From the NCBI GenBank assembly GCA_965203485.1, contig OZ241892.1:448001-512000 (forward strand): a DNA stretch of 64,000 nucleotides. Reading direction: 5' to 3'. This document shows, piece after piece, positions 7,061 to 8,709 of the stretch. The stretch comes from Longimicrobiales bacterium. GTDB lineage: Bacteria > Gemmatimonadota > Gemmatimonadetes > Longimicrobiales > Gaopeijiaceae. Position 1 is the stretch's first letter; each line of letters begins with the position of its first letter. A model generated the notes under the pieces. That model saw only the letters and a list, made by a program, of their open reading frames with translations. It was not told the origin of the DNA and did not search any database. The translations under genes were made by a program, and so were the position numbers.

Positions 7061-7264
7061 GTGAAGAAGCTCGGATTGGCGCTGTTCCTGGCGGTAGCGT
7101 GCATCTTCGCCGCCCCCGCCGTGCCGGTCGACTCCCCGGCAGATGCGCAGGCGGAGGCGACTTCGACGAAGCGGAAGATGACGGACTTCTTCATCTTCTA
7201 CTTGTGCTGGAAGCCGCCATGTCCTGCGTCGGATGACGAGTGTTGCGTGATCAGGGAGCACTAA
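7061..7264 (+). CDS. Secreted Cys-rich peptide 1 (67 aa; signal, pro-region, KRK, C-C-CC core)
   Basis: GGAAGGAG RBS and GTG start; KKLGLALFLAVACIFAAPA signal; core YLCWKPPCPASDDECC. Confidence 0.8.
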   Translation: MKKLGLALFLAVACIFAAPAVPVDSPADAQAEATSTKRKMTDFFIFYLCWKPPCPASDDECCVIREH

Positions 7265-7304
7265 GTCGGAGGCATGTTGCACGCATGGGCGTTGCGGCGC
7301 CCAC

Positions 7305-7335
7305 GGGAGCCCGGCCGACGGTCGGCCGGGCTCCC
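7305..7335 (+). other. Strong hairpin after peptide 1, no U-tract
   Basis: GGGAGCCCGGCCGAC-G-GTCGGCCGGGCTCCC, a perfect 15-bp inverted repeat. Confidence 0.8.
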
Positions 7336-7380
7336 CGATGCGACCGGCCTCCCGCGGGGAGCGTTCCTCGAACAGAGAGA

Positions 7381-8406
7381 ATGATCATGACCAAGAAAAT
7401 GTGCACTACGTGCGCCGTCTTCGCCCTTTCGACATGCGCCGATGGCGCTCCACCGACGTTTCCGTTCTCGCCGGAGGCGGGGCGGCTCGCATCCTTTGCC
7501 GAGGTCTTCGAGGTTGTTGATACCTTGATCCTCGAGGAAGACCCCGCAAGAGACGTCGTCACCGCGACGCCACTCGTCAGGTTCGACGGGCGCCAGTTCT
7601 GGATTGCGGACGTCGCGGCCTACCAGGCAAAGGTCTATGCAATGGACGGAAGCCTGCTGGACGCCCGGGGTCGCGCAGGACAGGGGCCCGGCGAATTCGC
7701 CTTTCCGTTTTCCGCCCGGCCCGCGCGAGGCGGTGGTCTCCTCGTGGCGGACCTTGCTCAAGAACGCTTGACGCTGTTCTCGCCGAATCCCGAGAGCGAG
7801 GCAGAGACGATGGCGACCCCGGTTGCTCCACTGGACGCCATTGACCTGGGAAATCGCCGTTACTTGGTTACGGGGTTCCGACTGTCCGCGTTGCATCCGG
7901 ACACAACGCAACCCATGCTGCACGTTTGGAATGCCGACTCGCAGGCAATCGAGCGAAGCTTCTTCGTGCCGCCAAGACCTGGTTATCTCGGCAGAGTGGC
8001 GTCAAGAGGCGAATATGTGTATGCTACGATCCGCGACAGGGCGATCTGGGTCGTATCTGCATTCACAGACAGCGCCTTCGTTCTTGGAATGGACGGCACG
8101 CGAATGAGAGCGATTCCGTTCCCTCTGGCCAAGCAGCCGCCGCCCGACGCTCCGGAGCGATGGGAAGTCGACAAGTTCTTCGTTCTTGCGAACGGATGCA
8201 TTGCCGTCGAGGTGGGGATCAGAATCGGACGGAAGCGAGATGTGGACCAGCAGCACCTCATGATTCTGGACGGCGACGGCAACCCTCGGGCGCTTCTCGC
8301 CGACACCCCCATGCTGCGAGTGGTCGCCGATGATCTCTTCTACTTTCAGAATCCCGATCGCATGGAGCCAAATCATTGGATAATCGCGCGCTGGAGGGCA
8401 TCATGA
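7381..8406 (+). CDS. Six-bladed beta-propeller protein, paralog 1, probable lipoprotein
   Basis: GRAGQGPGEF motif, N-terminal Cys signal, clear paralogy to 8811 and 9860. Confidence 0.8.
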   Translation: MIMTKKMCTTCAVFALSTCADGAPPTFPFSPEAGRLASFAEVFEVVDTLILEEDPARDVVTATPLVRFDGRQFWIADVAAYQAKVYAMDGSLLDARGRAGQGPGEFAFPFSARPARGGGLLVADLAQERLTLFSPNPESEAETMATPVAPLDAIDLGNRRYLVTGFRLSALHPDTTQPMLHVWNADSQAIERSFFVPPRPGYLGRVASRGEYVYATIRDRAIWVVSAFTDSAFVLGMDGTRMRAIPFPLAKQPPPDAPERWEVDKFFVLANGCIAVEVGIRIGRKRDVDQQHLMILDGDGNPRALLADTPMLRVVADDLFYFQNPDRMEPNHWIIARWRAS

Positions 8407-8709
8407 AGAAGCCGTTGCGCGCATTCCTGTCCGTTCTTGCCGCGCCGTTGGGGGCTGGGGCGTGCCAGCACGCGACTCCTGCACCCCTCGACATCGGCAA
8501 TCCGGCCCCGGCCCTAGGTGTTGCTCCTCGCTCCCGCCGTGGCGTTCGACGCGCCAGCGGACGCGCGGCTGGAGGCAACCCCATCGGCGGGAGCGCAGAA
8601 GGCGTTTGGCATCGGAGATGACGTGTATCTCTGCGCTTGGCCATGCTGGTTCGGAAAATGCTGTGAGAGGGTGCCCAACGACGACGAGGATGAGGCCTCG
8701 CTCGGATAG
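8403..8709 (+). pseudogene. Chimeric or frameshifted unit: lipoprotein-like N-terminus (8403-~8517) joined out of frame to Cys-rich peptide 2 (8518-8709)
   Basis: ATGA overlap at 8403, LGAGAC lipobox-like motif, IGNPAP. 8518-8709 reads APAVAFDAPADARLEAT...YLCAWPCWFGKCC, homologous to peptide 1 but directly preceded by TAG. Confidence 0.6.

Follow-up and report, generated by a model that had tools for sequence, protein, structure and literature searches.

What are the small cysteine-rich peptides encoded in this stretch of DNA, and what do the neighboring genes do for them? The stretch (hereafter the window) is 64,000 nucleotides long and corresponds to positions 448,001–512,000 of the forward strand of contig OZ241892.1. 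A sequence-only reading of it had pointed to two paralogous peptide genes with a conserved pro-region and a variable core, each followed by its own propeller gene, and had placed them in a diversifying family organized in the manner of RiPP precursors or venom prepropeptides. We reexamined the two genes, their neighbors, and their relatives in other genomes.

Results

Two Related Peptides with a Common Leader

The peptide genes lie in the window as follows (aa, amino acids).

7061–7264, plus strand: peptide 1 ORF, GTG start, 67 aa
7061–7159, plus strand: leader of peptide 1 (codons 1–33), with a basic N-terminus, a hydrophobic stretch, and a Pro/Ala/acidic spacer ending in Ala-Glu-Ala
7160–7264, plus strand: predicted mature core of peptide 1 (predicted cleavage site), 34 aa, C-x4-C-x6-CC
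8518–8709, plus strand: peptide 2 remnant, 63 aa, consisting of spacer, C-x3-C-x4-CC core, and acidic tail

Both ORFs yield the translations that had been reported, and the cysteine spacings are as described, with x4 and x6 ahead of the CC pair in peptide 1 and x3 and x4 in peptide 2. The common pro-region is also borne out: the leader stretches of the two peptides are identical at 12 of 17 residues, with a score of 59 that none of 10,000 shuffles reached (best, 45), and over their whole length the peptides gave a local alignment score of 71 (maximum in 2,000 shuffles, 47). Neither peptide has a Pfam or NCBIfam match at an E value of 0.1. A profile of the family run over the organism's own genome returned exactly three members, namely, the two peptides of the window and a third (peptide 3) that has its own propeller at genome position ~1,217,500, and in a large database the family amounted to 12 proteins out of 1,349 candidates. 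As judged from its sequence pattern, the N-terminus of peptide 1 is likely to be a signal peptide.

A Recent Deletion Truncated Peptide 2 and a Thioredoxin-Like Gene

The two peptides are related, as claimed, but peptide 2 is not an intact paralog. In the window it has neither a start nor a signal peptide, and an in-frame TAG lies immediately 5′ of its GTG. The ORF on its 5′ side is the remnant of a different gene, which rules out the possibility that peptide 2 is naturally a frameshifted lipoprotein–peptide fusion.

8403–8522, plus strand: 5′ remnant of a thioredoxin-like lipoprotein gene; the ORF continues out of frame to 8621
8522–8524, no strand: junction of a 670-bp strain-specific deletion, from metagenome contigs

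Only the first ~40 codons of the thioredoxin-like gene are retained, and the remnant is 53% identical over 38 amino acids (E = 6e-9) to the intact gene in another genome of the genus, G001. The order of genes in G001 is peptide 1, propeller 1, the thioredoxin-like lipoprotein, a peptide 2 whose signal peptide is complete, and then propellers 2 and 3. Because G001 keeps the gene of which the window has a remnant, the unit is one of three genes, not two. The intact ORF in G001 (locus L019, 10571–11479, minus strand) runs without a stop for 303 codons and overruns peptide 2 out of frame.

In sponge metagenomes X6 and X7, which contain near strains and come from different studies, 671 bases lie between positions 8522 and 8524. 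Metagenome X1 (66-fold depth, possibly the source of the window DNA) matches the window across the junction without differences, as does X4, from another study and at a depth of 2. The intact peptide 2 of the near strain (P0013) is 72 amino acids long and has a signal peptide. In light of the longer form in X6 and X7, the junction in X1 and X4, and the intact P0013, the deletion is real and recent, and an assembly artefact is ruled out as the cause of the break in peptide 2. The deletion removed the start and signal peptide of peptide 2 together with most of the thioredoxin-like gene. Loss of the leader recurs: at locus L026 a peptide gene in front of a propeller gene (4676–4846) is likewise broken at its 5′ end, with its C-C-CC core intact.

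A Three-Gene Module of the Gemmatimonadota

Three propeller genes are found in the window.

7387–8406, plus strand: propeller lipoprotein 1 (NHL/DUF5128-type), 339 aa
8811–9863, plus strand: propeller lipoprotein 2, 350 aa, 50% identical to propeller 1
9860–10876, plus strand: propeller lipoprotein 3, 338 aa, with no peptide of its own and no GxGPGEF loop

Comparison with related loci, which came from records of Longimicrobiales or Gemmatimonadetes, revealed that the true unit is a module of the Gemmatimonadota, conserved across the class, that consists of a cysteine peptide with a signal-type leader, a stem-loop, an NHL-type propeller lipoprotein, and a ResA/TlpA-like lipoprotein in which a single cysteine is invariant. 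Among 22 loci anchored on the thioredoxin-like gene, at least two of which fed the profile, all 22 had a propeller gene and 21 a signal-type cysteine peptide. Among 30 loci anchored on the propeller, six of which fed the query alignment, 20 had a signal-type cysteine peptide within 1.5 kb (random-window control, 1 of 300 4-kb windows), and 19 had the thioredoxin-like gene as detected with a profile iterated on these same loci. The propeller clade occurs in 69 of 301 genomes of the order and the thioredoxin-like family in 21 of 301 genomes of the phylum. A propeller gene does follow each peptide in the window, but the one-to-one pairing of the sequence-only reading did not survive: in many loci a single propeller, or a single propeller–thioredoxin pair, goes with two or three different peptides, and propeller 3 stands alone.

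The association extends through the organism's own genome, in which 14 of 30 small signal-type ORFs with at least four cysteines have one of the 52 propeller-like ORFs as a same-strand neighbor no more than 1.5 kb away (~3% expected), and several of its cysteine peptides adjoin DsbA-domain fusions. Loci L063–L068 of this genome contain at least ten further signal-type cysteine peptides, of other frameworks, beside propeller genes; the CxxC motifs of the DsbA-domain fusions among them are CASC, CPFC, and CPIC.

The propellers of the window are 42%–50% identical to one another. At E ≤ 0.001, DUF5128 (PF17170) matched 23 of 78 aligned propellers, whereas the three window propellers alone do not match it; the Atlas neighbors of the propeller are DUF5128 clusters. 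The best solved relatives are the NHL domains of TRIM71, TRIM2/3, and Brat (profile match to TRIM71 NHL at 3e-43). When metagenomes were scanned with the propeller alignment, none of the 332 pattern matches proved to be a relative.

The Thioredoxin-Like Protein

A profile of the third protein matched ResA (E = 5e-4), and the Atlas neighbors of the family, which has 549 representatives at an E value of 0.001, are Redoxin/AhpC-TSA proteins. In common with ResA and TlpA, the family has a thioredoxin fold with a conserved proline, but it does not have an invariant CxxC with a nucleophilic first cysteine. The motif is D-(C/L/Y)-L-x-C, and among 150 representatives the second cysteine was present in 148 and the first in 78; the tryptophan was kept in 149, two arginines in 148 each, and the proline opposite the active site in 128. 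Since the normally nucleophilic first cysteine is missing in about half of the family, classical dithiol chemistry is doubtful. Three of the 150 representatives are natural fusions to this propeller family, propeller first. The organism's own genome has no intact member at an E value of 1e-12, although peptides 1 and 3 remain intact in this strain and four propellers are kept. VKOR is present in the genome, which is 95% complete and in which DsbB was not found.

Our best reading, which we hold with a little less than even confidence, is that the three genes constitute a periplasmic module for the putative binding and the oxidative folding of a secreted disulfide peptide. We favor it because the link to the thioredoxin-like gene is nearly absolute, because fusions of the two accessory proteins exist, and because one propeller–thioredoxin pair serves several peptides, as fits a maturation module. 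Counted against it are the loss of the thioredoxin-like gene from a strain that keeps its peptides and propellers, the doubtful dithiol chemistry, and two weaknesses of the propeller analysis described below, namely, a charge test uncorrected for kinship and an enrichment of substitutions in top loops in one of two comparisons.

Stem-Loops, a Duplicated Upstream Element, and the Surrounding Island

The regions around the three genes contain the following features.

6891–7042, plus strand: upstream (promoter/leader) element of peptide 1, with an 87% identical copy at 11823–11980
7305–7335, plus strand: 14-bp GC stem-loop 3′ of peptide 1, without a U tract (z −4.1, 0 of 200 shuffles)
8723–8770, plus strand: stem-loop 3′ of peptide 2 (z −2.6, 2 of 200 shuffles)
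12044–12217, plus strand: second kind of cysteine peptide, C-C-CC-C-C, knottin-like framework, behind the copied upstream element
12348–14099, plus strand: DsbA/Thioredoxin_4 domain fused to a DUF5128 propeller (domain match)

Seven peptide-to-propeller spacers of unrelated sequence were folded, and each gave a long stem (z −2.6 to −5.8). We rejected the idea that the stems are intrinsic terminators, as they have no U tracts and no terminator was found after the peptides. The stems would instead stabilize the mRNA in a way that favors the peptide over the accessory genes.

The copy of the upstream element fronts another cysteine-rich peptide gene, and a partial third copy lies elsewhere in the genome. 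The element has no Rfam match, its folding is not unusual relative to shuffles (z −1.1 and −1.7), and a search for sigma-70 promoters found none. In the segment 11823–14099 the copy is followed by the knottin-framework peptide, a stem-loop, and the DsbA–propeller fusion. The peptide matched Conotoxin_I2 of Pfam only at an E value of 0.12, far below the cut-off, and the DsbA domain was not significantly related to the thioredoxin-like family by hhalign (probability 1.9). On its other side the copy adjoins the start of a fragmented transposase, presumably IS1634-like, which occupies the minus strand at 10899–11820 between propeller 3 and the copied element.

Farther downstream (14394–17225), genes for an ECF sigma factor, a one-cysteine thioredoxin-like protein, a cysteine peptide, and a membrane protein are followed by one for another ECF sigma factor; this block is also present in G001 (L020), beside its tandem cassettes. 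The cysteine peptide of the block (15647–15844) has a CC-CC-CC-C-C framework, and similar peptides are found at two other places in the organism's own genome. The peptide island is flanked by similar serine hydrolases of the β-lactamase family (4473–6803 and 17640–19400), of which the second appears frameshifted. Finally, 97–3210 encodes a eukaryote-like secreted protein that combines leucine-rich repeats with a leishmanolysin (M8) peptidase domain.

Divergence of the Cores and of the Propellers

The leader is more conserved than the core. Mean identities for leader and core were 0.87 and 0.58 within subfamilies (14 pairs) and 0.53 and 0.27 between them (52 pairs). This much of the proposed diversifying family stands, but the hypervariability that it implied does not: between the window and G001 the orthologous cores had dN/dS values of about 0.35 and 0.12, indicative of purifying selection. 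From divergence between paralogs and purifying selection between orthologs, we conclude that the cores, as these alignments have them, are paralog-specific and fast evolving but not freely hypervariable. In peptide 2 the spacer (9 of 19 residues identical between the window and G001) is no better kept than the core (24 of 40). Between near strains, peptide 1 differs at 1 of 33 leader residues versus 5 of 34 core residues (p = 0.20), and propeller 1 differs at 11 of 339 residues, significantly less than the core (p = 0.01).

G001 contains two tandem cassettes, A and B, whose 37 leader codons are identical. Their cores are identical at 19 of 39 residues (dN 0.37, dS 0.15; dN/dS about 2.5, an excess that is not significant, p = 0.21), and their propellers are identical at 321 of 350 (92%). 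Synonymous differences between the propellers numbered 0 of 86 in codons 1–120 versus 19 of 167 in codons 121–350 (p = 5e-4). The identical leaders and the lack of synonymous differences in codons 1–120 point to gene conversion, which would have homogenized the leader and the start of the propeller and spared the core and the later blades. Elsewhere, P0003, P0005, P0006, and P0009 combine one near-identical leader with four cores, and P0006 seems to be an A/B mosaic. When peptide and propeller trees were compared, five of the seven inner branches of the peptide tree were open, and linkage by itself would produce congruent trees.

Does the propeller bind the core? Blade count and top-face loops were assigned from NHL homology and by manual placement of the loops on the blade pattern, fixed before the charges were examined. 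Core charge was anticorrelated with the charge of the top-face loops (rho −0.42, p = 0.017, n = 32 pairs, in statistics that ignore kinship; rho −0.42, p = 0.028, n = 27 pairs after removal of five near-duplicates) and not with that of the bottom loops (rho −0.01). In one comparison of close propellers, substitutions were concentrated in top loops (7/117 vs. 2/191, p = 0.03), although top and bottom loops of the same pair did not differ significantly (7/117 vs. 1/45, p = 0.45); in the tandem propellers the top loops were not enriched (11/112 vs. 7/45 in bottom loops). A complex prediction for mature peptide 1 and propeller 1, run without controls and with an uncertain peptide fold, scored 0.01 and is weighed neither for nor against binding.

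The same observations bear on an alternative in which the secreted peptide serves as an antagonist or a signal, its finished form is bound by the propeller as the cognate immunity protein or receptor, and the thioredoxin-like protein is an accessory. Paralog-specific cores held under purifying selection between species would be expected of such a pair, as would the charge anticorrelation and the greater divergence of core than of propeller 1 between near strains. In the tandem cassettes, cores and propeller residues 121–350 have stayed different where leader and propeller residues 1–120 were apparently homogenized, a pattern that also fits, although the elevated dN/dS of the tandem cores is not significant. 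A dedicated receptor is, however, hard to square with loci in which two or three unrelated peptides share a propeller, with a window propeller that has no peptide, and with propellers that have no signaling domain. The loss of the thioredoxin-like gene in a strain that keeps its propellers speaks for the alternative, which nonetheless leaves the tight linkage of that gene and the fusions unexplained; on balance we think it unlikely.

Probable Leader Cleavage and Processing

Motifs were counted in 71 distinct family peptides and compared with shuffles. An A-x-A motif between the hydrophobic stretch and the core was present in 55 of the 71 (18.7 in shuffles). It lies 9–23 residues before the first cysteine in 43 of the 55, at 15–16 residues in 20, and near the end of the hydrophobic stretch in 12. 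In peptide 1, 15 residues separate Ala33 from Cys49, and all 11 aligned peptides of the genus have Glu32-Ala33. The mature peptide is therefore likely to begin, on the pattern of these motifs, at Thr34, with KRK inside the product. The sequence-only reading had instead proposed processing at basic residues that precede the core (KRK in peptide 1, K in peptide 2). These residues are present but are not a conserved feature of the family, as a dibasic pair occurs in 19 of the 71 peptides (9.9 in shuffles), and the counts speak against processing there and in favor of A-x-A.

The hydrophobic stretch of peptide 1 is separated from AEA by 13–15 residues. According to PMC6579943, the usual c-region of a signal peptide is 3–7 residues, and since the spacer is longer, two cuts may be needed. 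Signal peptidase may cleave at AEA in one step, or Ala20 may be cleaved first. The X-Ala repeats of the peptide 1 spacer might suggest trimming by a dipeptidyl peptidase, an idea that we abandoned since peptides 2, 3, and A/B do not follow this pattern. The long spacer would likewise suit a venom-like prepropeptide, in which the signal peptide would be removed at the first A-x-A and a genuine propeptide by a second cleavage at KRK/K. The basic clusters are kept in all five aligned peptide 1 orthologs and dibasic pairs occur at twice the shuffled level, but 52 of the 71 peptides have no such pair, peptide 3 and tandem A/B have none before the core, and many homologs are almost without a spacer. 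The conserved landmark is E-A/A-x-A, whose distance from the first cysteine is constant, and we consider this route improbable.

The logic of a RiPP, which the sequence-only reading had also invoked, failed to find support. Pfam and NCBIfam searches of 12 and 7 ORFs in positions 1–20000 of the window identified no modifying enzyme; in the organism's 95% complete genome, MNIO (PF05114) had no match (control match in Caulobacter) and no C39 peptidase (PF03412) was found (control matches in 7 of 14). A true RiPP would then call for the propeller itself to be the enzyme, either a PAL-like amidating lyase or another NHL/SGL enzyme, or for a distant enzyme to modify the cysteines. The propeller profile does match the PAL domain of PAM weakly (E = 0.001), and the residues invariant across 78 propellers are Gly, one His, and one Asp only. 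PAL requires three Zn ligands. A single invariant histidine falls short of this, the best propeller matches are to the nonenzymatic NHL domains of TRIM71, TRIM2, and Brat, and the cores have no conserved terminal glycine, so that we give modification little credence. Equally poor are the prospects of a cell-bound peptide (a lipoprotein attached through leader Cys14 or a periplasmic metal or redox buffer under ECF-sigma control): Cys14 is invariant in 11 peptides of the genus, ECF sigma genes adjoin some cassettes, and lipidated and metal-binding signal-peptide RiPPs exist (PMC13056109), but a strict lipobox occurs in 1 of the 71 peptides and any leader cysteine in 26, Pro occupies −1 in the tandem peptides, hydrophobic residues run on past the leader cysteine, and diverging aromatic cores are needless for a metal buffer.

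Discussion

We return to the folding module, which would work as follows. Peptide 1 would be exported by its signal peptide and trimmed at the Ala-X-Ala site to a two-disulfide peptide of ~34 residues, and the stem-loop would keep its mRNA at a higher level than that of the accessory genes. The propeller lipoprotein would hold the peptide outside the cytoplasm while a transient mixed disulfide at the invariant cysteine of the thioredoxin-like protein sorted the two disulfides, with oxidizing power supplied in this genome by the DsbA–propeller fusions and VKOR. Duplication of cassettes would generate new cores, and gene conversion would keep the leader and the propeller N-terminus alike. As to the finished peptide, our guess is that it acts outward, in antagonism or signaling within the sponge community.

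Several known systems resemble the module in part. The NVEALA small proteins (PF14055) of Bacteroidota, which we take to neighbor six-bladed DUF5128 propellers, have a similar leader end (E-A/A-x-A), a small cysteine core, and an adjoining propeller, but peptides 1 and 2, P0013, and P0003 do not match PF14055; a search for papers under the names NVEALA and DUF5128 found none, and the NVEALA system is itself uncharacterized. Conotoxin prepropeptides combine a conserved leader with a variable disulfide core and a fixed cysteine framework, and the disulfide peptide sublancin is accompanied by dedicated thiol-disulfide oxidoreductases. The module shares with these the conserved leader, the variable disulfide core, and a thioredoxin-fold helper beside the peptide; it differs in that peptides 1 and 2 have no Pfam match, the basic site is not conserved, and the cores are conserved between orthologs, and it differs from sublancin in having no glycosyltransferase and no C39 exporter. 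Bufferins and DAG-RiPPs, the MNIO-modified signal-peptide RiPPs, likewise start from a signal-peptide precursor with conserved cysteines (PMC13056109), whereas here no MNIO was found in the genome, 70 of 71 peptides have no lipobox, and the partners are a propeller and a thioredoxin fold.

The closest parallel in domain content is with NHLRC2 of animals and some bacteria and SOQ1 of the plant thylakoid lumen, in which a thioredoxin-like domain is paired with a six-bladed NHL propeller (PMC6107167; bioRxiv 10.1101/2024.11.01.621559). The same two folds are encoded here by adjacent genes and are occasionally fused; moreover, the DsbA-domain/propeller fusions of the organism's own genome have the domain pairing of NHLRC2 as given in that account (PMC6107167). 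Unlike NHLRC2 and SOQ1, the module has no CC(I/V)NC motif, places the propeller before the thioredoxin domain when fused, otherwise encodes both as separate lipoproteins, and has a dedicated peptide gene beside them. Bacterial NHLRC2 homologs are reported to have no conserved gene neighbors, and human NHLRC2 to be without oxidoreductase activity in an insulin assay, the latter a point against the folding reading (PMC6107167). From its sequences, then, the module would work like a split NHLRC2/SOQ1 but would not be a member of that group, from which it differs in motif, order, and neighborhood.

In the literature that we searched, which barely covers subscription journals, the trio is undescribed, and the main text of a study of marine Gemmatimonadota (PMC10469786) makes no mention of propellers, NHL, or thioredoxin. 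The secreted disulfide-peptide module is real, is widespread, and has apparently not been described. A bolder picture, which we put forward tentatively and rate as somewhat unlikely, is a conotoxin-like library of secreted peptides in which a fixed export leader and C-C-CC scaffold carry cores that tandem copies swap and diversify, each core being both folded and recognized by a co-evolving propeller–thioredoxin chaperone; this chaperone would be the split, periplasmic counterpart of NHLRC2/SOQ1, with a client encoded in the genome. Were that so, one sponge symbiont might, as a similarly doubtful extension, possess at least 14 such peptide–propeller pairs in several cysteine frameworks, including a knottin.

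Most known libraries of disulfide-rich peptides come from venoms and plants. A bacterial library with its own folding module, if true, would offer new stable bioactive scaffolds and possibly a tool with which to fold them. Natural experiments are at hand in the tandem pair, whose identical leaders, cores with 19 of 39 residues in common, and 92% identical propellers lend themselves to specificity swaps, and in the strain that lost its thioredoxin-like gene. The very large, unannotated family of DUF5128 propellers would likewise gain a function, and the architecture of thioredoxin plus NHL propeller a testable client; for the human member of that architecture, NHLRC2, no activity is known.
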